A DNA stretch of 64,000 nt from Acutalibacteraceae bacterium (GTDB lineage: Bacteria > Bacillota > Clostridia > Christensenellales > UBA1242), in assembly GCA_963602035.1 (NCBI GenBank), contig CAVCHC010000001.1:25351-89350 (forward strand), given 5' to 3'. Shown here one piece after another: positions 4,025-55,995 of this stretch (position 1 is the stretch's first letter; every line of letters begins with the position of its first letter). A model generated the notes under the pieces. The model ran no database searches. It was given only the letters and a program-made list of their open reading frames with translations, and was not told the origin of the DNA. The translations under genes were made by a program, and so were the position numbers.

Positions 4025-5929
4025 ATGAAAATTCAATTAAGAGATGAAGTAAGAGAGTATCGCAAGGGAACAACGGTTGCCCAGATTGCTGAAAGCATCA
4101 GCGAGGGGTTGGCGCGCGTTGCGGTTTGTGGCAAGATTGGCGACGAATTAGTTGACCTTCAAACCAAGCTTAACCAAGACACTAAACTTACCATCATCAC
4201 GCCAAAAGACCCTGAATACAAGATGGTTATGCGTCACACTTGCGCGCACATTATGGCGCAGGCGGTTAAGGCGATTTATCCAACGGCCAAGTTGTCAATC
4301 GGCCCAGCAACCAACGAGGGGTTTTATTATGACTTTGACTTTAAAACGCCTATAACCCAAGAGGACCTTGGCAAGATTGAGGCCGAGATGAAGCGTATAA
4401 TTAAGGCCAATTTTGAAATTAAGCGTAAAGAGATAACCCGTTCGCAGGCCATCAAGCTTATGGACGAAAATGACGAGCCATTCAAAATCGAGCTTATTGA
4501 CGCTATTCCAGAGGGCGAAAAGATAACCATCTACACCCAGGGCGACTTTTTTGACGTCTGCCGCGGCCCACACCTTAAATCTACGGGTATGATTAAGGCA
4601 TTTAAGCTTACCAAACTTGCGGGCGCGTACTGGCGAGGCGATGAGCATAACAAGATGCTTAGCCGCGTTTATGGCGTATGTTTTGACAAGCAAAGCGAGA
4701 TGGATGACTATTTCAAGATGATTGAAGAGGCCGAAAAGCGTGACCACCGCAAACTTGGCAAAGAGCTTGACTTGTTCTTTTTAAGTGACTATGCGCCTGG
4801 GATGCCATTCTTTATGCCAAAGGGGCAAGTTGTAATTAACGAGCTTATCAACTTTTGGCGCGAAGAGCACGCAAAGGCGGGGTACGTTGAGATAACAACT
4901 CCAATCGCGCTTAACCGTGAACTTTGGGAAAAGAGCGGACACTGGGACCACTATAAAAAGAATATGTATACCTTTAAGGTTGAGGATGACGACTTCGCTA
5001 TCAAGCCTATGAACTGCCCAGGCGGTATGCTTTATTATAAAGAAAGGCTGCACAGTTATCGCGAGTTTCCTATGCGCGTGGCGGAACTTGGCAAGGTTCA
5101 TCGTCATGAGGCCAGCGGCACTTTGCACGGCTTGTTTAGGGTACGCTGCTTTACGCAAGACGATGCGCACATCTTTATGACGCCTGACCAAATCGAAACG
5201 GAAGTTGCGGGCATCATCAAACTTGTTGACAATATGTATAAGGTGTTTGGCCTGACTTATCACCTTGAACTTTCAACCATGCCAGACAACCACATTGGCG
5301 AACTTAGCGAGTGGCAGCATGCTGAAACCTGCCTTAAAAACGCCCTTACGCACCTTGGAAAAGAGTTTGTTATCAACGAGGGCGACGGCGCGTTCTATGG
5401 GCCAAAGATTGATATTCATATCAAAGACGCAATCGGCAGGACGTGGCAGTGCGGCACCATTCAACTTGATATGCAACTTCCTAAGCGCTTTAACCTTACG
5501 TATATGGACGCTGACGGGACGCACAAAGAGCCTATTATGGTTCACCGCGTAATTTTTGGGTCAGTCGAAAGGTTCTTTGGCGTTATAACAGAGCACTTTG
5601 CGGGCGCGTTCCCTACGTGGCTTAGCCCAGTTCAGGCGATTGTTATGAACGTTACGGACAAGTCAAGCGAGTATGCTAAACAAATCGCTGACAAACTTAA
5701 AGAGGCGGGTATTCGTACTGAACTTGACGTGCGCGCAGAGAAGATTGGTTACAAAATCAAAATGGCGCAATTGCAGAAAATACCTAATATGATTATCGTT
5801 GGCGAAAACGAGGTGGCGGCTGGTACTATCAGCGTGCGAAAACGCGGAAACATCGAACTTAAAGACGTTAAACTTGACGACTTTATCGCCGAAACCTTGC
5901 GCCAAATCAAAACCCGCGAGAGAAACTAA
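4025..5929 (+). CDS. thrS: threonine--tRNA ligase
   Basis: 634 aa with an N-terminal TGS-like domain and class II core motifs (HRHEASG, FRVRCFTQDDAHIF). RBS GAAAGGAGA. A Thr T-box lies upstream. Confidence 0.97.
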   Translation: MKIQLRDEVREYRKGTTVAQIAESISEGLARVAVCGKIGDELVDLQTKLNQDTKLTIITPKDPEYKMVMRHTCAHIMAQAVKAIYPTAKLSIGPATNEGFYYDFDFKTPITQEDLGKIEAEMKRIIKANFEIKRKEITRSQAIKLMDENDEPFKIELIDAIPEGEKITIYTQGDFFDVCRGPHLKSTGMIKAFKLTKLAGAYWRGDEHNKMLSRVYGVCFDKQSEMDDYFKMIEEAEKRDHRKLGKELDLFFLSDYAPGMPFFMPKGQVVINELINFWREEHAKAGYVEITTPIALNRELWEKSGHWDHYKKNMYTFKVEDDDFAIKPMNCPGGMLYYKERLHSYREFPMRVAELGKVHRHEASGTLHGLFRVRCFTQDDAHIFMTPDQIETEVAGIIKLVDNMYKVFGLTYHLELSTMPDNHIGELSEWQHAETCLKNALTHLGKEFVINEGDGAFYGPKIDIHIKDAIGRTWQCGTIQLDMQLPKRFNLTYMDADGTHKEPIMVHRVIFGSVERFFGVITEHFAGAFPTWLSPVQAIVMNVTDKSSEYAKQIADKLKEAGIRTELDVRAEKIGYKIKMAQLQKIPNMIIVGENEVAAGTISVRKRGNIELKDVKLDDFIAETLRQIKTRERN

Positions 5930-6650
5930 ACGCTGCGCGAGTGAAGAGTGAAGAGTGAAAAGTGAAAAGAAGCGGCTGGTGATTTTAATATCGCCGTGAA
6001 CGACTAATCTATACATCCACTCCCCAACTCCGCCCCCTTCAGGGGGAGGGCCGACGCGTTAAGAAAAGTTGCCAGTGGCAAGTTTTTAGCCAAAGGCGGG
6101 AGCGCCCCAAGCGCGGTCAGGCCGACAAGGCGGAGAACGTAGCGTGGAGCGCAGTGAGACGGAGGGGTTAATAAGGCAACTTGAATAAAGAAAATACTCT
6201 ATGTTAATTTATATCAACTAACATAGAGTATTTTTTTGTTATGATATTATTTTTGTCATTACGAGGAGGCAAGACCGACATAGCAATCTCAGCTGCTTTA
6301 TAATATTCTCGTTTTTTCTGCGGACTGATTAACCCCTCCGTCACGCCCTCCCTCAACGGTCGGCGTGCCCACCCTCCCCCTAAAGGGGGCGGAGTTGGGA
6401 AGGGTATGGGGAGATTTTGCTATATAATGATGTTAAACAACAAACTATCATAACGACATCAGCAAGCGTAAATATATTTACAACGAACACTGGTCGTAAC
6501 GCAGTGAAGAGTTGGTGAGGGGTAAATGTATTTACGCGAGTGCGCCAAATAAACAATAATAATCGGCCGCATTTCAACTTTAAACTTTAAACTTTAATTT
6601 CAAGCAACTTCTTTTCACTCTTCACTTTTAACTTTTCACTTCTTTGTTTA
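5930..6650. repeat. intergenic mosaic repeat complex 2
   Basis: GAGTGAA heptamer array 5939-5973, nested-palindrome element 6023-6399, module E 6465-6538, inverted AAAGTTK array 6564-6590, inverted AGTGAA array 6598-6633. The outer arrays are reverse complements of each other. Confidence 0.85.
6023..6399. mobile_element. MITE-like nested-palindrome element (gene-less copy)
   Basis: Arms cccaactccgcccccttcagggggaggg ... ccaccctccccctaaagggggcggagttggg. Inner ends gacggaggggttaataagg ... tgcggactgattaacccctccgtc. Core hairpin 6191-6237. Module A at 6254-6296. Confidence 0.8.
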
Positions 6651-9189: not shown

Positions 9190-9909
9190 ATGAGTGGACA
9201 CAGCAAGTTCCATAACATAAAAGCAACAAAAGACAAGGCCGATAAGGCGCGTTCAAATATCTTTACAAAAATCGGGCGTGAACTTGCGGTGGCGGTTAAG
9301 GCAGGCGGAGCGGACCCATCAACCAACAGCAAGCTTTATGACGTTATCCAAAAGGCTAAGCAAAACAATATGCCTAACGACACCATTCAGCGCAGTATCA
9401 AAAAGGCCAGCGGGGCAACGGATACTGACAACTTTGAGGCGATAACCTATGAAGGCTATGGGCCTCATGGCGTTGCGTTTATCGTTGAGTGTTTAACGGA
9501 TAACCGTAACCGAACCGCAAGCGACGTTCGCCATCTTTTTGATAAGCACGGCGGGTCACTTGGCACCAGCGGCAGCGTTATGTATATGTTTGACCGCAAG
9601 GGCGTCATTATGCTTGAACCAAAGGCCGGCGCAAGCGAAGACGATGTTATGATGGCGGCCATTGAGGCGGGTGCTGACGACGTTATAACCGAGGAGGACG
9701 GGTTTGTTATCTACACCAGCCCAGAGACCTTTCACGCCGTTTCAAAAGCCTTTGAAGATGCGGGCTTTAATGTTATTTCAAGTGAGATTGAATACATTTC
9801 AAGCAACCTTATACCTCTTGACGAGAGTCAGGCTGAAAGCATTGAAAAACTGAAAGACAAGCTTGAAGAGTTGGATGATGTGCAGGAGGTTTACACCAAC
9901 CTATCGTAA
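9190..9909 (+). CDS. YebC/PmpR-family transcriptional regulator
   Basis: MSGHSKFHNIKATKDKADKAR... canonical YebC N-terminus, 239 aa. Confidence 0.93.
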   Translation: MSGHSKFHNIKATKDKADKARSNIFTKIGRELAVAVKAGGADPSTNSKLYDVIQKAKQNNMPNDTIQRSIKKASGATDTDNFEAITYEGYGPHGVAFIVECLTDNRNRTASDVRHLFDKHGGSLGTSGSVMYMFDRKGVIMLEPKAGASEDDVMMAAIEAGADDVITEEDGFVIYTSPETFHAVSKAFEDAGFNVISSEIEYISSNLIPLDESQAESIEKLKDKLEELDDVQEVYTNLS

Positions 9910-10045
9910 AAACCGCTAAATTGAGCGATTAAGTGCAGAAAATGCGAGGCTTCCAAGAAGTCACGTACGAAAGTACGCTCTATCTTGATAAGCCTCTTTT
10001 TTCTTTCTTACTCATCTCAATTTAGCGGTTTTTACACGTGACTAA
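9908..10045 (+). repeat. long imperfect hairpin element L (copy 1)
   Basis: aaaaccgctaaattgag...ctcaatttagcggttttt followed by acacgtgactaat. It starts inside the TAA stop of the upstream gene. A paralogue lies at 32625-32766. Confidence 0.8.
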
Positions 10046-10099: not shown

Positions 10100-10360
10100 T
10101 ATGTCACAAAGAGTGACGAATTTATATATACTATTCCCAACTCCGCCCCCTGAAGGGGGCGGAGTTGGGGAGTATATATAGAGATGATGTTGCTGTGAGG
10201 GGTGGTTGTATAATCCCCAGCAACTTCTTTTAACTTTTCACTTTTAACTTTTAACTCCCAAGCATCGCGCGGTTTTGGGGATTGTCACGTCGGCGATGAC
10301 TTCTCGCAATGACAATATTAATCTCAGCACTATTTCAACTTTAAACTTTCAACTTTCGCT
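10100..10360. repeat. intergenic mosaic repeat complex 3
   Basis: Conserved flank gacgaatttatatatac, solo palindrome 10136-10169, inverted heptamer array 10224-10256, module A (minus) 10277-10314, inverted AAAGTTK array 10333-10357. Confidence 0.8.
10136..10169. repeat. solo 34-bp perfect palindrome (unoccupied form of the nested-palindrome element)
   Basis: cccaactccgCCCCCtgaaGGGGGcggagttggg. Its flanks are homologous to those of the occupied site at 32857-33581. Confidence 0.85.
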
Positions 10361-14464: not shown

Positions 14465-15454
14465 ATGTTTTATAGTAATTTTAGTAAAAGTACTGACAAA
14501 TATTATCTTAATCCAAACGATTATATTGACGTGGCTGAGCCGGCTGCGTCGATATTTGAAACGCCCGTTGTGCACAGGCTTTATCGCGTGGTTTATCTTA
14601 AAAGCATTGCGTTTAACGCCGATTGTTACCCAATTTCTCCGGGGACGGAGGGTGGCTATATTGAAAGCGAAAGCAACCTGTCTCAGGCGGGCAACTGCGT
14701 GGTTTTAGACGGCGCAAGGGTGTTTGGCAGCGCTAATGTTTCGGGCGACGCGTGCGTGTGTGACGAGGCAACAATTTATGGCCGTGCGGTGATTAAAAAC
14801 AATGCGCTGGTTTGCGGCGGGGCGTGCGTGTGTGATGACGCGCGGGTTATAATGAATGGTATTGTTGATGGCAACGCGTGCGTGGCGGGCAATGCGGTTG
14901 TTTGTGACTGTGCACACGTTTTTGACGGGGCTACCATTGGCGGCAGTGCGTTTGTAAGCGGCCAAGCGATGGTTTTAGGCAGTGCGGTTATAAAAGACAG
15001 CGCGATTGTTACCGACAATGCGATTGTAAGTGGTCAAGCGACAATTTCAGGCAGCGCGGTTATAAAAGATAGCGCGGGCGTGTTTGACAACGCTAACGTT
15101 TCGGGGTTTGCTAAACTTGAAAAGCGCGCGAGGGCGTATGACGATTGTTGCATTACGGACGCGGCGCGGGTAAGCAACCGTGCGATGATTATCGGCGGGG
15201 CGACCGTTGGCGGCAAGGCGTGCATTTTTGATAACGCGGTTGTTGGCGGCCGTGCAAGCGTTTTGGGTAACTCGTACGTCGGCACGAATGTAGAAGTTAA
15301 AGGCAACGCAAGGCTTGACGATAAGCAGCAAAAATTTTATCAAAACGTAATCATAAACGGCGCCGAAATTGAGTATCAATCAGGCAATGCTGAATACAAT
15401 GCAGAGAATGTTGACGCTAGTCAAGACGACGCAACCAGCCAGCCTAATGCGTAA
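14465..15454 (+). CDS. left-handed beta-helix (hexapeptide-repeat) protein, YdcK-like
   Basis: About 35 consecutive hexapeptide units ([GDN]xAx[VI]x). The N-terminal segment (RLYRVVYL..GTEGGYIESESNLSQAGNCVV) resembles E. coli YdcK as I recall it. RBS AGGGAGA precedes the ATG at 14465. The ORF-track start at 14180 overlaps cadA. Confidence 0.6.
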   Translation: MFYSNFSKSTDKYYLNPNDYIDVAEPAASIFETPVVHRLYRVVYLKSIAFNADCYPISPGTEGGYIESESNLSQAGNCVVLDGARVFGSANVSGDACVCDEATIYGRAVIKNNALVCGGACVCDDARVIMNGIVDGNACVAGNAVVCDCAHVFDGATIGGSAFVSGQAMVLGSAVIKDSAIVTDNAIVSGQATISGSAVIKDSAGVFDNANVSGFAKLEKRARAYDDCCITDAARVSNRAMIIGGATVGGKACIFDNAVVGGRASVLGNSYVGTNVEVKGNARLDDKQQKFYQNVIINGAEIEYQSGNAEYNAENVDASQDDATSQPNA

Positions 15455-15560
15455 TTACACGGGGCGGGCAAAGTTAGTAACGCTTGTGTAATTACACGGG
15501 GCGGGCAAAGTTAGTAACGCTTGCGTAATTAGGTGCGGGCGAACTAAGTTAGCATAAATT
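15449..15560 (+). repeat. 3 x 37-bp tandem repeat that reiterates the gene end and stop codon
   Basis: gcgTAAttacacggggcgggcaaagttagtaacgctt / gtgTAAttacacggggcgggcaaagttagtaacgctt / a degenerate third unit. Confidence 0.85.
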
Positions 15561-15617
15561 ATGTGTAATATTCGCGGGCAGATTGGGTCGGCGGATTTAT
15601 TGAAAAAGGAAGAAAAA

Positions 15618-16373
15618 ATGAGCAAAGTTTCAATAAAAAATCAAAAGTTTAGGCTTGGCTATCCAAGCACGCTTATATTTGACAATATGGGCAAAACGAT
15701 TAATGTTTTCAGGGTTGAGTACCTGCGTGACATTCCGCGTTTTAACATCAAAAAAGGTGACAAGGGCGGGTTTGTTGAGTATGCGGGCAACCTTAGTCAA
15801 GACGACGACGCGGTTATTGTTGGCAACGCGGTTGTAACGGGCAGCGCGTGGGTTTTTGGCGACGCTTGTGTTTGTGGCAACGCGCGAGTGTCTGGCGAGG
15901 CGTGGGTCGGCGAAAAGGCAATTATTTCGGGCGACGGCAGGGTGTTTGACCACGCGGTTGTTGGCGGCCGTGCGCAGGTTTGTATGGGCGCACAGGTGTT
16001 TGAAAATGCACGTGTTGGCGAAGACGCGGTGATAACGGGCAATGCGCGTGCGTGTGGTAATGCGCTTGTTACGGGGTCGGCGAAGGTGTCGGGCTCGGCT
16101 GAGGTTAGCGGCGACGTAAAAATTGGCGACAAGGCGATTGTGACCGACGGGGCAAAGGTTTGTCAGGCGGCGCAAATTAATGGCAATGCGCTTGTTTGTA
16201 AGCGCGCGAAAATCGGCGGCCACGCGAAGATAACTGACAACGCGGTGGTTGGCGGCTATTGCGTTATCGGCGGAAAAACGCAGGTTGTTGGCTCGGCCGA
16301 ACTATCAGGGCACGTTAAAAACTTAGCGGGCGACATCATTGACGCTGACATTCACGTTGAGAAAACGAAATAG
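15618..16373 (+). CDS. left-handed beta-helix (hexapeptide-repeat) protein, YdcK-like paralogue
   Basis: Same architecture as the previous gene (VFRVEYL..KGGFVEYAGNLSQ followed by hexapeptide repeats). RBS AAAGGAAG precedes the ATG at 15618. Confidence 0.6.
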   Translation: MSKVSIKNQKFRLGYPSTLIFDNMGKTINVFRVEYLRDIPRFNIKKGDKGGFVEYAGNLSQDDDAVIVGNAVVTGSAWVFGDACVCGNARVSGEAWVGEKAIISGDGRVFDHAVVGGRAQVCMGAQVFENARVGEDAVITGNARACGNALVTGSAKVSGSAEVSGDVKIGDKAIVTDGAKVCQAAQINGNALVCKRAKIGGHAKITDNAVVGGYCVIGGKTQVVGSAELSGHVKNLAGDIIDADIHVEKTK

Positions 16374-29614: not shown

Positions 29615-30105
29615 AGAGTTAAAAGTGAAAAGTGAAAAGAAGCGGCTGGAATTAAATTGCTGTTACTAGTAACTTGTACGTGCCTGTCATTGCGAGGAAC
29701 GTAGTGACGTGGCAATCCCATTGCTAGGGGAAGAGACGATGTTACCAGCGCAGCTCCGCCCCCTTGGCTCGTCGCAACTCGAACTTGTTTAACGCTCAGC
29801 CCTACTAACGTAGGTGTTCGCTTATCTCTCGTTCGGTTGCTCCTCTTCGCCTGCAAATTTTATGCTAAAATTTTTGGCGAGCACGCTTGCGCGTGGGGAT
29901 AAATCGGCTGAGATTATCGCGTCGTTACACTCCTCGTAATGACAATTAGCAGCAGACCATTTTAGCGACATCGGTAAGCGTAAATATATTTACAACGAAC
30001 ACTGGCCGAAGCATGGCGTAGGTTTGGTGAGTGTAAATGTATTTATGCGGGTGCACCGAATAGATACTGCAAATAATCGGCCGCATTTAAACTTTAAACT
30101 TTCAA
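29609..30105. repeat. intergenic mosaic repeat complex Y
   Basis: RAGTGAA array 29609-29643 (the trmD TGA stop is part of the first unit), module A 29685-29723, partial palindrome gctccgccccc, module C 29770-29895, module A (minus) 29906-29944, module E 29977-30050, inverted AAAGTTK array 30085-30105. Confidence 0.85.
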
Positions 30106-32279: not shown

Positions 32280-32624
32280 ATGAGTAATGTTATTGATGCT
32301 ATTGAAAAAGAAGGTATGCGCGCTGATATCCCTGAGTTTAACATTGGTGACACGATTAAGGTTTACGCTAAAATCGTTGAAGGCAACCGCGAAAGAATTC
32401 AAGGCTTTGAAGGCGTGGTAATAGCTCGCAGAAACGGTGGAATAAGAGAAACTTTCACGGTTCGTCGTGTATCATTCGGTATCGGCGTTGAGAAAACTTA
32501 TCCGCTTCACTCACCAAAGATCGACCACATTGAAATCGTTCGTAAAGGTGATGTAAGACGTGCTAAACTTTACTATCTTCGTGAACGTAGTGGGAAGTCG
32601 GCGAAAGTAAAAGAAAAGAAATAG
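32280..32624 (+). CDS. rplS: 50S ribosomal protein L19
   Basis: [35 protein letters not shown]... typical L19. Confidence 0.96.
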
Positions 32625-32766
32625 TTAAAACCGCAAATTTGCGCGACTAAATGCAGAAAAGACAACGTCACTAAGCGTTGCAGCCGAAAAGGCTAGCTAC
32701 CGCTTAGATGACAACGTCTTTTCTTTTTTATTCATCACAAATTTGTGGTTTTAACACGTGACTAAT
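32625..32766 (+). repeat. long imperfect hairpin element L (copy 2)
   Basis: ttaaaaccgcaaatttg...acaaatttgtggtttt followed by aacacgtgactaat. Starts 1 nt after the rplS stop. Confidence 0.8.
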
Positions 32767-32788: not shown

Positions 32789-32821
32789 TGTCATTGCAAG
32801 AAACGATGTGATGGGTTATTC
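32789..32821 (+). repeat. module A (degenerate copy)
   Basis: ttgtcattgcaagaaacgatgtgatgggttattc. Confidence 0.6.
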
Positions 32822-32995
32822 ACAGCAGAAGCTGCGACGAATTTATATATACAATTCCCAACTCCGCCCCCTTTAGGGGGAGGGTGGTCGAACGTAGCGT
32901 AGAGCGTAGTGAGACGGAGGGGTTAATAAGTCCGCAGAAAAAACGGTGGTGCTATAAATTGGCAATGTTTGTTTTTTACTAATATTTTATAATAA

Positions 32996-33024
32996 TTTAC
33001 AAAATCTAACTGCGTTGATATAAT
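32996..33024 (+). promoter_or_regulatory. internal promoter of the DUF559 cassette
   Basis: TTTACA-17-TATAAT. The ATG at 33031 lies 6 nt after the -10 with no RBS, so the transcript is probably leaderless. Confidence 0.55.
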
Positions 33025-33030
33025 TTGAAT

Positions 33031-33399
33031 ATGATACAATACAATAACTATAATTATAAATTCGCAAAACGTATGCGCAAAAATATGACGCCGTGGGAGT
33101 TGCGGCTTTGGGAATTATGCTTACGCAAATTACCATTGCGGTTTAAACGTCAACATTTGCTAGGAACCTACATCGTGGATTTTTATTGCGCCAAGGCCAA
33201 GTTGGTTGTTGAAATAGATGGAGGCCAGCACTATTACGATGACGATACACAAAACAAAGATGCCGAGCGAGACGAGTTTTTAAAATCGCAGGGGCTTACG
33301 ATATTGCGCTTTTCGGACACTCACATTCACTATTTTTTTGAAAGTGTGTGCGCAGAGATATACAAGGCAATAGAACCATACTTAAATAAAGAAAGTTAA
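33031..33399 (+). CDS. DUF559 (Vsr/MutH-like fold) endonuclease-domain protein
   Basis: MTPWELRLW..LRFKRQH..YIVDFYC...LVVEIDGGQHY....D..RD.FL...G..ILRF pattern typical of DUF559, 122 aa. Confidence 0.8.
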   Translation: MIQYNNYNYKFAKRMRKNMTPWELRLWELCLRKLPLRFKRQHLLGTYIVDFYCAKAKLVVEIDGGQHYYDDDTQNKDAERDEFLKSQGLTILRFSDTHIHYFFESVCAEIYKAIEPYLNKES

Positions 33400-33444
33400 T
33401 TTTTTAGAAGATGCATATTTTTTAGATTTTGAGAGAACATAATA

Positions 33445-33500
33445 AAAGAAGGTGTTATAGTTCGGTTGGTTTAACCAAATTATAATACCTTCTTTTTTTC
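33445..33500 (+). terminator. hairpin terminator inside the DUF559 element
   Basis: aaaagaaggtgttata ... tataataccttcttttttt, merging into the right TIR. Confidence 0.6.
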
Positions 33501-33668
33501 TGCGGACTGATTAACCCCTCCGTCTTGTGTCGCTCTACGCTCCACTGCGACCACCCTCCCCCTAAAGGGGGCGGAGTTGGGTTAGGGAAGTGGGGCGGAT
33601 GCCATAGGGGTTAAAAGTTAAACCTGAGATTGTATCTTGAAAAAAATGAAAAATTTTGGAAAATTCTC

Positions 33669-35652: not shown

Positions 35653-35950
35653 CCCAACTCCGCCCCCTTTAGGGGGAGGGTGGTCGAACGTAGTGTGGAG
35701 CGGAGTGAGACGGAGGGGTTAATCAGTCCGCAGAAAAAACGAGAATATTATAAAGTGGCTGAGATTACCACGTCGGCCTTGCCTCCTCGTAATGACAAAA
35801 ATAATACCACAATAAAAAAATACTCTATGTTTATCAATATTGACTTACATAGAGTATTTTCTTTTTTCGAGTTGCCTTATTAACCCCTCCGTCACGCCAT
35901 CCCTCCACGGTCGGCGTGCCCACCCTCCCCCTGAAGGGGGCGGAGTTGGG
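35653..35950 (-). mobile_element. MITE-like nested-palindrome element (gene-less copy, inverted core)
   Basis: Arms cccaactccgccccctttagggggagggtgg ... ccaccctccccctgaagggggcggagttggg. The core is the reverse complement of the 6023-6399 core, with module A at 35758-35797 and the hairpin aaaatactctatgt/acatagagtatttt. Confidence 0.8.
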
Positions 35951-45243: not shown

Positions 45244-45460
45244 CAGTCTCCGCCCCCTTGGGGGAGGGTCGTCTCGCAAACCGCAGAGGTGCAGCGGGAC
45301 AGAGGGGGTCTAAGTCCTATAAAAAATAAGAAGATACTTTACGTTAGTAAATATTTGCTAACATAATGTATCTTCTTTTTTTAAGTTGATTTTATACCCC
45401 CTCCGAGTTTCGTCGCTCTACGCTCCTCAACACTATCCTCCCCCAAGGGGGCGGAGTCTG
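45244..45460. mobile_element. MITE-like nested-palindrome element, subfamily 2
   Basis: Arms cagtctccgcccccttgggggaggg ... cctcccccaagggggcggagtctg. Inner ends gacagagggggtctaagtcct / ttataccccctccgag. Core hairpin aagaagatac..gtatcttcttttttt. Confidence 0.7.
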
Positions 45461-55098: not shown

Positions 55099-55995
55099 AT
55101 GAAAGGCTTTTTTAATATCAACAAGCCGCGCGGGATGAACTCGACCAAGGTGGTGGCGATTATCAAGCGCCTTACGCACGAAAAGGTGGGGCATCTTGGC
55201 ACGCTTGACCCCGATGCGCACGGTGTTTTGCCCATCGCGGTTGGCAAGGCGACGCGGCTGTTTGACTTTTTTCTTAACAAAGACAAGGTGTATGAGGCGC
55301 GCGGGCGGTTCGGCGTTTTAACCGATACGCTTGACGAAAGTGGGCGCGTAGTTTTAACGAACGACGTGCGGCCAACGCGGGCGCAGTTAGAGGCGGTTTT
55401 GCCGATGTTTTGTGGTAAGCAAATGCAGATACCGCCTATTTTTTCGGCCAAGCAGGTGGACGGCGAGCGTGCGTATGACAAGGCGCGCAGGGGCGAAGAG
55501 GTGACGCTTACTCCGCGCGAGATTAACATTTTTAGCCTTGAACTTTTGAGTTTTGAGGGCGACGAATTTTCGGTGCGCATTCACTGTTCGGCGGGCACCT
55601 ACGTTCGGGCGCTTATTCGCGACATTGCTGAAAAACTGGGCGCCATCGCCACAACGGTAGACATTTTCAGGACACGTTCGGGCGCATTTGACATCGCCTC
55701 GTCAATATCTATTGATAATATTTGTCATAGCGAGGAGCAAAGTGACGTGGCAATCCCATTGTCAAACCCAAGCTCGTCCGCTTTGCAACTAATTTCGATT
55801 GAAGACGCGCTGTCAGGGCAAGAAAAGGTGCGCCTAACCGAGCCGCAGGTGCAAAACCTGTTGTGTGGGCGCGGGCAAATGGTTTCATATAAAGACGCGA
55901 AAAACGTGCTGTTTTTGACGCCAGATGGCGACACGTACGGCCTTGGCGACATTGAAAATGGGCAGATAAAAATCACGGCATTTTTGTTAGATTAA
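55099..55995 (+). CDS. truB: tRNA pseudouridine55 synthase, carrying an in-frame module A insertion
   Basis: GHLGTLDPDAHGVL catalytic motif. The segment CHSEEQSDVAIPL is encoded by repeat module A. Confidence 0.9.
   Translation: MKGFFNINKPRGMNSTKVVAIIKRLTHEKVGHLGTLDPDAHGVLPIAVGKATRLFDFFLNKDKVYEARGRFGVLTDTLDESGRVVLTNDVRPTRAQLEAVLPMFCGKQMQIPPIFSAKQVDGERAYDKARRGEEVTLTPREINIFSLELLSFEGDEFSVRIHCSAGTYVRALIRDIAEKLGAIATTVDIFRTRSGAFDIASSISIDNICHSEEQSDVAIPLSNPSSSALQLISIEDALSGQEKVRLTEPQVQNLLCGRGQMVSYKDAKNVLFLTPDGDTYGLGDIENGQIKITAFLLD
55719..55762 (+). repeat. module A copy inside the truB coding sequence
   Basis: atatttgtcatagcgaggagcaaagtgacgtggcaatcccattgtc, compared with the intergenic copy tgtcattgcgaggaacgtagtgacgtggcaatcccattg at 29685-29723. 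Confidence 0.85.

Follow-up and report, generated by a model that had tools for sequence, protein, structure and literature searches.

What kind of element is a nuclease gene that is enclosed by long inverted repeats and has no transposase at its side? This question is raised by a locus in a 64-kb stretch of DNA from an Acutalibacteraceae bacterium (hereafter the window; coordinates are positions within it), in which a gene for a 122-aa protein of the DUF559 family lies between two nested inverted repeats (32857–33581). An initial annotation had regarded this cassette as the autonomous member of an undescribed mobile family, with gene-less copies as its miniature inverted-repeat transposable elements (MITEs). 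Our analysis indicates that nuclease and repeats are probably one mobile unit, that the repeats have, by their order of sequence blocks, the published layout of the BoxC/PIT/intrastrand-triplex-motif class and are thus not an undescribed kind of sequence, and that the same association recurs around DUF559 genes in distant phyla.

A DUF559 nuclease gene within nested inverted repeats

The cassette is ∼725 bp long and lies in the intergenic region between rplS and rpsB. Its two arms of 87 and 88 nt are 89% complementary: 32857–32943 matches the reverse complement of 33494–33581 at 78 of 88 aligned positions, the outermost 34 nt form a perfect inverted repeat (32857–32890 and 33548–33581), and the inner 31-nt repeat (32913–32943 and 33494–33524) has a single mismatch. 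Neither the full-arm nor the inner-repeat pattern occurred in shuffled versions of the window, against which repeat significance was judged; the arms and inner repeats had been placed at the right coordinates and are far beyond chance.

The left arm (32864–32943, forward strand), identified by reading the sequence and by its match to the right arm, is a repeat of the triplex-motif type. A pyrimidine block CCGCCCCC, the loop TTTA and a purine block GGGGGAGGG are followed by a spacer of ∼30 nt (33 nt up to the mirror block) that contains TGGTCGAACGTAGCGTAGAGCGTAGTGAGAC, by the mirror block GGAGGGG and then by TTAATAAGTCCGCAGAAAAAA. The right arm (33494–33574, reverse strand) is an inverted copy of the left one, and its loop reads TAAA on the forward strand. 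This arm pair is nested in the loop of a further hairpin with a 15-bp stem, the left half of which, H1L (CCCAACTCCGCCCCC, 32857–32871), is the perfect complement of the right half, H1R (GGGGGCGGAGTTGGG, 33567–33581); hairpin stems, palindromic layers and doublets are given without a strand throughout. The CCCAACTCCGCCCCC stem has six copies in the window and none in its shuffles. Palindromy continues past the arms into the flanks: an outer layer on the left side, gacgaatttatatatacaatt (32836–32856), is partly mirrored at 33582–33600 in other copies, and the same flank (repeat family D9) lies at 10115–10135, ahead of a solo hairpin, and is also found in L002, L018, and L114 (L-numbers denote comparison contigs or loci from related strains, metagenomes and other phyla; L103, for example, is Escherichia coli K-12).

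The segment between the arms (32944–33493) has a GC content of 0.344 compared to 0.465 for the whole window, and all components that had been assigned to it are present. A sigma-70-type promoter, TTTACA-17-TATAAT with a TG extension (32996–33024, forward strand, 11 of 12 matches), is kept in L001, L002, L015, and L017. The open reading frame (ORF) for the DUF559 protein (33031–33399, forward strand) is leaderless, with its ATG at 33031, 6 nt past the −10 element. It is followed by a terminator-like hairpin and a T run (33438–33505, forward strand); the 30-nt arms of this hairpin, which are 83% complementary, span 33438–33502, and its A/T-rich stem explains why it was missed by a simple scan for terminators. 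No target-site duplication surrounds the cassette: the loops at its two junctions (TTYA at the left end and TRAA at the right) are inverted relative to each other, and the flanks are themselves palindromic. The terminator hairpin aacataataaaagaaggtgtt..ataccttctttttt is also present alone, without arms or gene, between rplS and rpsB in another strain (L104, 1920–1990), indicating that the DUF559 cassette is itself a composite of modules.

The cassette occupies different loci in related strains

A 98% identical protein is encoded on other contigs within the same nested arms. On its left side the cassette adjoins rplS (window, L015, and L017), tuf (L002), or a peptidase M16 gene (L001 and L141, the latter an independent assembly of the M16-flanked cassette first seen in L001), and on its right side either rpsB or an HTH_3/ATPase gene pair. 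Between L001 and L002, a stretch of 772 bp reaching to the outer hairpin is 100% identical, but beyond it the two sequences diverge, and their left flanks differ. Thus, the cassette is a discrete multi-copy unit that is found behind three different genes in related strains.

Presence of the cassette also varies among strains with identical L19, as would be expected of a mobile element. Ten such strains form a tight group by their housekeeping DNA, with 7–58 differences over the 2415 nt compared, and the window strain is an outgroup to them (79–92 differences). Even where housekeeping genes differ at no more than 1%, the cassette is present at rplS–rpsB in some strains and missing from others. 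At the rplS–rpsB site of this group, the cassette is present in L015 and L017, a solo hairpin with the same left flank in L018 and L020, a diverged hairpin in L016 and L019, and a 167-aa ORF instead in L013, L021, and L022. This ORF (∼5000–5620) has a faint YpsA match, and the same spacer in L018 and L020 contains a small XRE-like gene on the opposite strand (∼4620–5030).

The solo hairpin of L018 and L020 reads CCCAACTCC-T-CCCCC. Its T at position −6 is that of the inner stem of the right arm (..CACCCTCCCCC), whereas the outer stem has a G there. At the tuf–HTH_3 site, the empty alleles L142–L144 read CCCAACTCCGCCCCC-TTTA-GGAGGAGGAGTTGGG, with a left-type loop and the +6 A of the inner stem of the left arm. 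The two small end hairpins of the cassette are near-direct as well as inverted repeats, and the solos at rplS and tuf have, judged from their sequence, the composition of chimeras expected if recombination or annealing of the end hairpins had deleted the interior. Since both carry inner-arm bases, they are deletion scars and not naive targets. At a third site, between a YebC-family gene and adh, the window carries a solo (10136) and L114 a complete gene-less doublet; this solo has no inner-arm base and is compatible with a scar or an unfilled target alike. No comparable empty allele was found for the M16 site, because the gene order differs there.

Gene-less doublets and solo hairpins

The gene-less copies at 662, 6023, and 35653 do share arms with the cassette, but they do not carry identical arms and ends as had been proposed. 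The doublet at 6023–6399 consists of a left arm of type A with an 85-nt insert and a right arm of type B; it encloses a terminator-like hairpin and a TGTCATTACGAGG..GCAATC module, and is absent from 10 related strains. The doublet at 35653–35950 has the same arms around an inverted inner segment, folds as a single long hairpin (z = −12.4, with folding tools that model Watson-Crick hairpins only) and is absent from 9 related strains. In the right arms of both, it is the middle section that differs (type B). In the doublet at 662–1069, which was found by arm matches and belongs to repeat family D13, the left arm is truncated: its inner half is lost, and another repeat module is joined after CCCCCTTC. 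A variant doublet, AGTCTCCGCCCCC-TT-GGGGGAGGGT ... ATCCTCCCCC-AA-GGGGGCGGAGTCTG (45245–45460, repeat families D12 and D14), encloses only a terminator-like hairpin, and the solo hairpin CCCAACTCCGCCCCC-TGAA-GGGGGCGGAGTTGGG (10136–10169) has the cassette's flanks on both sides, together with which it folds to a 26-bp stem (DNA fold z = −8.9).

The inner end sequence GTCCGCAGAAAAAA, which had been thought to bracket all copies, is present at one end only of each gene-less copy. The gene-less copies carry other modules and have one inner end alone in common with the DUF559 copy. They are therefore not internal-deletion derivatives of the DUF559 element, and the analogy to a transposon and its MITEs fails on this point. 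Relative to the type A and B arms, the inner segments at 6165–6345 and 35709–35895 lie in opposite orientations, which suggests an inversion across the inner inverted repeats.

Several modes of insertion were considered and rejected. Restriction and ligation, with a cut in the loop and pasting into another hairpin, is at odds with the inverted junction loops, since the overhangs would be incompatible; a target-site duplication of TA or of the loop is contradicted by loops that differ between the ends in two copies. The repeats show no evident likeness in sequence or organisation to an integron attC site or an Xer/dif module. A scan for the outer arm in a genome collection without the window's genome gave only three hits; those in Streptomyces and Devosia are not close to any DUF559 gene and probably arose by chance.

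The DUF559 protein is predicted to be an active nuclease

The encoded protein is a Vsr-fold, PD-(D/E)XK-type nuclease that matches PF04480 over profile positions 4–109 of 109 (105.8 bits, cut-off 20.6, E = 1.4e-30). Two solved structures come closest to it, the uncharacterised 3hrl (E = 3e-22), named "endonuclease-like protein", and the catalytic domain of I-Bth0305I, 3r3p (E = 1e-4 when the family profile is used); there are also weak profile matches to homing endonucleases (PADLOC 'HEase', 8e-5; PHROG 'homing endonuclease', 1e-4). The residues D50, E61, D63, H67, D77, and R80 are invariant in 30 homologues and align with 3hrl. All seven cassette copies are intact, the 74-aa gene calls among them being gene-caller artefacts, and the ratio of nonsynonymous to synonymous divergence (dN/dS) is 0.02–0.06 at a dS of 0.2–0.3. 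Based on the intact copies, the low dN/dS and the invariant active-site residues, the protein is functional and under strong purifying selection. Synonymous divergence is 0.21 for the cassette compared to 0.09 for housekeeping genes, values too noisy to distinguish vertical descent from re-invasion.

DUF559 is, to our knowledge, one of the large uncharacterised nuclease families, and we know of no biological role assigned to it. The family comprises 21,280 clusters at 50% identity (E ≤ 1e-3). Many of its representatives carry extensions that are translated arms, e.g., PPLKGEG or SLPLTREG, so that the repeats are routinely turned into spurious N- and C-terminal ends of DUF559 proteins; they also break metagenome assemblies. 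Most contigs with close DUF559 relatives are only 0.5–1.5 kb long, which is consistent with arms that break short-read assemblies. Among 2.9 million viral contigs, none matched the inner repeat and 11 DUF559 relatives were found; the cassette is not a phage element.

Triplex-type arms surround DUF559 genes in other lineages

The initial annotation had raised the possibility that DUF559 genes are consistently bounded by inverted repeats. We surveyed 80 metagenome loci encoding relatives that are 39–54% identical. At the 72 testable loci, the two sides of the gene were compared and their best-matching inverted repeat was scored, with 230 ORFs of the same loci as controls. The median score was 34 for DUF559 genes compared to 18 for the controls, and 68% of the 72 loci exceeded the control 95th percentile. 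After de-duplication to 45 protein clusters, 26 lay above the 95th and 23 above the 99th percentile. The bounding of DUF559 genes by inverted repeats is thus systematic.

These arms share a common layout, in which a pyrimidine-stem hairpin (e.g., CCTCTCCC-TTT-GGGAGAGG) is followed by a 16–24-nt spacer, often forming a mini-hairpin of its own, and by a second purine block GGAGAGGG. In most lineages the second purine block doubles as the Shine-Dalgarno sequence, and the right arm supplies C-terminal codons, as seen in the protein tails ..SLPQSA.LTAPSSEGA and ..SLSQLR. Left and right arms are of consistent types, with upstream stems starting with CC in 29 of 42 cases and downstream stems with GC in 28 of 42. 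The arm type follows the protein clade: identity is 0.78 within and 0.54 between types, a difference reached by none of 1000 permutations. Moreover, cassettes that are 92–99% identical are found in unrelated flanks (L070, L102, L075, and L085), where homology ends shortly beyond the arms, ∼120–150 nt outside the gene.

The mirror purine block that defines the triplex layout was detected 10–30 nt inward in 59 of 114 arms of DUF559 loci, whereas shuffled blocks would give 14. When the loci were scanned in a simple way for this layout, a triplex-type motif was found within 300 nt of the ORF at 70 of the 80, and motif density was 4.30 per kb in this range and 0.083 per kb elsewhere, a 52-fold enrichment. 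Tandem units of a right plus a left arm, with the gene in one of the slots, are present in L072 (1560–2690) and L086 (2250–2990). Long motif arrays also lie beside the DUF559 genes of Photobacterium (L132, 1878–3312) and Neisseria gonorrhoeae (L130, 1986–2683), and the array periods range from ∼137 to 281 nt.

Outside the metagenome set, motifs adjoin the gene at nine of ten loci from Cyanobacteria, Deinococcota, and Alpha-, Beta-, and Gammaproteobacteria, namely in Synechocystis, Picosynechococcus, two Deinococcus species, Sphingomonas, Sinorhizobium, N. gonorrhoeae, Photobacterium, and E. coli; only the Azospirillum locus lacks one. The association of DUF559 genes and repeats, which was observed in all phyla sampled, is ancient. 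In E. coli K-12 the DUF559 gene is ycjD (1,351,407–1,351,760), and the triplex motif TMECO #9 (1,351,239–1,351,204) lies 168 bp downstream (L103, 2700–2930, which corresponds to 1,351,200–1,351,430); the repeat beside ycjD is found at 16 places in an E. coli genome (median). A degenerate TMECO copy overlaps the last codons of ycjD, and ∼45 nt of the 3′ end of the gene (gagacggtgctggagaatattc...) are directly duplicated around this copy. In Deinococcus proteolyticus and D. aetherius (L134 and L138), the DUF559 gene and its triplex-type arms occupy the same site in the hpaB–hpaE operon region, which suggests that the gene has either resided there for long or used this site more than once. In Synechocystis (L129) and Picosynechococcus (L136) the gene lies beside or within DUF1156/DUF499 genes, and the upstream DUF1156 ORF of Synechocystis is short, as if interrupted.

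Setting of the cassette in the window

The window comes from a spore-forming clostridial species and consists of housekeeping DNA, with genes such as thrS, infC, rplT, ffh, rpsP, trmD, rplS, rpsB, tsf, frr, nusA, infB, and spoIIIA; the cassette has rnhB, yraN, rplS, rpsB, and tsf as neighbours. No transposase, integrase, or RAYT (REP-associated tyrosine transposase; REP, repetitive extragenic palindrome) is encoded among the window ORFs, none of which matches Y1_Tnp, and a further ∼200 kb of same-species DNA yielded neither a transposase nor a RAYT. Likewise, no invertase gene was seen among the window ORFs and no cytosine-5 methyltransferase gene adjoins the DUF559 gene. No Rfam family was detected in the window, and hence no intron around the gene.

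The intergenic regions are mosaics of several repeat families and are strikingly variable even between strains whose ribosomal proteins are identical. Another, MITE-like module, which has the terminal inverted repeats (TIRs) TTAAAACCGCAAATTTG/CAAATTTGTGGTTTTAA and encloses a terminator-like hairpin, is present at 32624–32755, at 9910–10040, and in L002 (142–285); it follows rplS, a YebC-family gene (9190–9909), and, in another strain, tuf. A module TGTCATTGCGAGGA..GTGACGTGGCAATCC, common in the intergenic regions of the species and often found beside AAAGTT or AGTGAA hexamer arrays, occurs at 29685–29723, 55723–55761, and 32789–32827 as well as within the doublets 6023–6399 and 35653–35950. 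An ORF at 2067–2681 with an Mrr_cat restriction-endonuclease domain (E = 1e-31) lies amid housekeeping genes beside the repeat-rich region 560–1250. The 18-nt periodic repeat at 14738–15955 (repeat family D3) is located inside two ORFs with hexapeptide/beta-solenoid matches and reflects coding repetition unrelated to the cassette.

How the nuclease-plus-repeat unit may spread

Since a hydrolytic nuclease cannot transpose DNA alone, break-induced copying by host recombination would be the most economical way to spread the DUF559 cassette. We tentatively favour, at somewhat less than an even chance, a selfish or semi-selfish nuclease-plus-repeat unit that is spread and homogenised by homing-like, break-induced recombination. 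The initial annotation had proposed that the nuclease may act on the CCCCC-N4-GGGGG hairpin. In the scheme favoured here, the DUF559 nuclease would recognise the repeat, be it in the form of a palindromic duplex or extruded to a hairpin or triplex, and nick or cut it; the gene is located at the dyad, where a dimeric enzyme would cut. Host recombination would repair the break from another copy, so that gene and arms are copied into other repeats and the copies become homogenised. If the break were repaired by arm-to-arm annealing instead, the element would be deleted and a solo hairpin left behind.

Several observations weigh against spread by homing. No naive unoccupied site was recovered at rplS, tuf, or YebC–adh, so that gains are deduced from multi-locus occupancy only; among the metagenome assemblies, L014, which joins rplS to the HTH_3 flank, and perhaps L001 may have been joined artificially at the repeat. 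A perfect solo (10136) and complete gene-less doublets persist unconverted beside an intact nuclease gene in the same genome. Homing targets would be few in most other lineages, where the arms are scarce at a distance from the gene (0.083 per kb); moreover, cassettes appear in flanks without pre-existing arms. The protein consists of a catalytic core and a short N-terminal helix only, without the separate DNA-binding domains of I-Bth0305I. The DUF559 protein VsrA of Caulobacter acts as a repair or damage nuclease tied to cytosine methylation, not to repeats (PMC12907096), and most E. coli triplex-motif (TM) loci are positionally stable across 56 genomes (PMC4666352).

Part of this evidence would also suit a host nuclease, i.e., a Vsr-like repair or structure-processing enzyme whose repeats hitch-hike, move by ordinary homologous recombination and slippage, and either act as expression signals (ribosome-binding site, 3′ end, insulation) or have simply accumulated. 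The inner block GGAG(A/G)GG of the left arm is a Shine-Dalgarno sequence in most lineages and the right arm provides C-terminal codons or the stop, the position of the gene is stable in some species (P0022 in 22 contigs, the hpa operon of Deinococcus, and ycjD of E. coli), and unrelated repeat modules shuffle among strains in the intergenic regions of the species. The scars are explicable by slippage or annealing without a special enzyme, and VsrA offers a precedent. We nevertheless consider this explanation rather doubtful: a 52-fold local enrichment of a special layout around one gene family in five phyla is hard to reconcile with hitch-hiking, cassettes move whole into unrelated flanks, and no cytosine methyltransferase gene is adjacent. 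In addition, the window promoter lies inside the arms, so that the left arm is not part of the mRNA and cannot be an expression signal there. Closest to the autonomous/non-autonomous scheme of the initial annotation is an analogue of RAYTs and REPINs (paired REPs that form hairpins), with DUF559 acting in trans on single-stranded hairpins at replication and dispersing doublets by excision and insertion. It would account for a gene between inverted hairpin repeats, for intergenic doublets that fold into long hairpins at about one per 10 kb of window, for arrays of alternating arm types beside the gene that resemble bacterial interspersed mosaic elements (BIMEs; L072, L086, Photobacterium, and N. 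gonorrhoeae), for an arm sequence specific to each nuclease clade, and for left and right arm types that differ like Y and Z REPs. However, a PD-(D/E)XK hydrolase does not pass through a covalent intermediate and is unable to rejoin DNA, and the window protein has neither an HUH or tyrosine motif nor a Y1_Tnp match. The gene is also multi-copy and polymorphic, unlike typical RAYTs, none of the doublets was found as a clean insertion opposite a naive empty site, and doublets are rare away from the gene in most lineages; such an analogue is therefore unlikely.

It is improbable that DUF559 is a captured passenger of a conventional MITE family whose arms are the TIRs of an unlinked transposase. 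The same gene family with the same layout and co-varying arms in distant phyla is unexpected of a passenger, there is no target-site duplication, and the window and ∼200 kb of same-species DNA contain no transposase. This search covered a part of the genome, the scan of the genome collection yielded only three arm hits, and the varied contents of the gene-less copies would fit such a family. Programmed inversion, with the arms as recombination sites of a switch that flips the gene or its neighbourhood, draws on the opposite inner segments of the gene-less copies at 6023 and 35653 and on the 14-fold enrichment of 'DUF559 domain-containing protein' among predicted programmed-inversion targets (PMC9881135). 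This enrichment, however, is accounted for by the flanking repeats themselves. With no invertase gene nearby, all seven DUF559 copies in one orientation relative to distinguishable arm features, and promoter and gene together inside the repeats, so that flipping would not switch expression, we regard an inversion switch as highly improbable.

The link between nuclease and repeats may have a wider bearing. It is possible, although on the unlikely side, that DUF559 nucleases are the missing partner enzymes of BoxC/PIT/triplex-motif repeats and thereby a RAYT-independent counterpart of the REP/REPIN system across phyla. With the same reserve, one may envisage a Vsr-fold hydrolase that recognises non-B DNA (hairpin or triplex) and thereby causes the repeats to spread, to become homogenised, and to be deleted. 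If so, two orphans, the DUF559 family and the triplex-motif repeats, would explain each other, the instability reported at these repeats would be accounted for, including that in E. coli (ycjD with TMECO), and a hydrolytic nuclease would be added to the few enzymes that are associated with interspersed repeats in bacteria. The link provides a directly testable hypothesis for how such repeats arise, move, and destabilise genomes, for which E. coli ycjD can be used.

Comparison with known systems

Among DUF559 proteins, Caulobacter VsrA causes DNA damage in vivo when a cytosine methyltransferase is absent and has been read as a repair nuclease, with a proposed action on T:G mismatches in methylated motifs (PMC12907096). 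It shares with the window protein the DUF559 domain and the lack of linkage to a methyltransferase gene, but no repeat association was reported for it. The DUF559 element resembles a DNA transposon with MITEs in that inverted ends are common to gene-bearing and gene-less copies and that presence varies between strains. It differs in that its only ORF is DUF559 and not a transposase, in the lack of a target-site duplication, in gene-less copies that are not internal deletions, and in empty sites of which two, among the three loci, are scars.

The Vsr-like homing endonuclease I-Bth0305I acts as a homodimer and cleaves a pseudopalindrome of 14 bp next to the site of its insertion. This EDxHD enzyme belongs to the same Pfam family and fold, with conserved acidic and histidine residues, and the window gene likewise lies at the dyad of a palindrome. 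In contrast to I-Bth0305I, the window protein has no NUMOD or helix-turn-helix DNA-binding domains, its gene is not in a group I intron or intein, DUF559 relatives are rare in phages, and the presumed target is a multi-copy intergenic repeat in one genome rather than a unique gene allele.

REP, REPIN, and BIME repeats are paired with RAYT, an HUH/Y1 transposase; RAYT genes are flanked by REPs, which are GTAG-tagged, and are typically single-copy and vertically inherited. The DUF559 system is similar in its gene between inverted hairpin repeats, in intergenic doublets that fold into long hairpins and the occurrence of singlets, in tandem arrays of alternating subtypes, and in a repeat sequence of its own for each enzyme clade. 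However, DUF559 is a PD-(D/E)XK hydrolase with only DUF559-related Pfam matches, its gene is multi-copy (at least three loci in related strains) and polymorphic in presence, and the arms are pyrimidine/purine mirror motifs, not GTAG-tagged REPs.

BoxC/PIT/triplex-motif repeats were described in the 1990s, and we know of no function, origin, or means of dispersal for them. Holder et al. (2015, PMC4666352) described BoxC/PIT/"TM" intrastrand triplex motifs with the consensus CCCTCNCCC-N3-6-GGGNGAGGG-N3-GGGNGAGGG as abundant in more than 260 genomes, including Enterobacteria, Neisseria, and Cyanobacteria. Both single motifs and inverted pairs of two subtypes are described, at loci that are hypervariable and where deletions "leave a hairpin"; the study links them neither to flanking genes nor to mobile elements, and the words endonuclease and ycjD are absent from it (PMC4666352). 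In our own search of openly accessible literature, where DUF559 is mentioned in 25 papers, no paper connected it with these repeats. The window arms differ from TMECO in their second linker, which is 16–33 nt long across DUF559 arms (33 in the window) compared to 3, in C5/G5-based blocks that do not match the TMECO consensus, whereas the E. coli copy beside ycjD does, and in being nested in a further hairpin with a 15-bp stem. The likeness comprises the block order of pyrimidine, loop, complementary purine, linker, and mirror purine in G/C-rich intergenic repeats, as well as multiple copies that are single or in inverted pairs, two subtypes (A and B in the window), and unstable loci. In line with this, the taxa that are rich in such motifs are those whose DUF559 genes carry the arms. 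Repeat class and protein family were thus each already known, and it is their connection that appears to be new.

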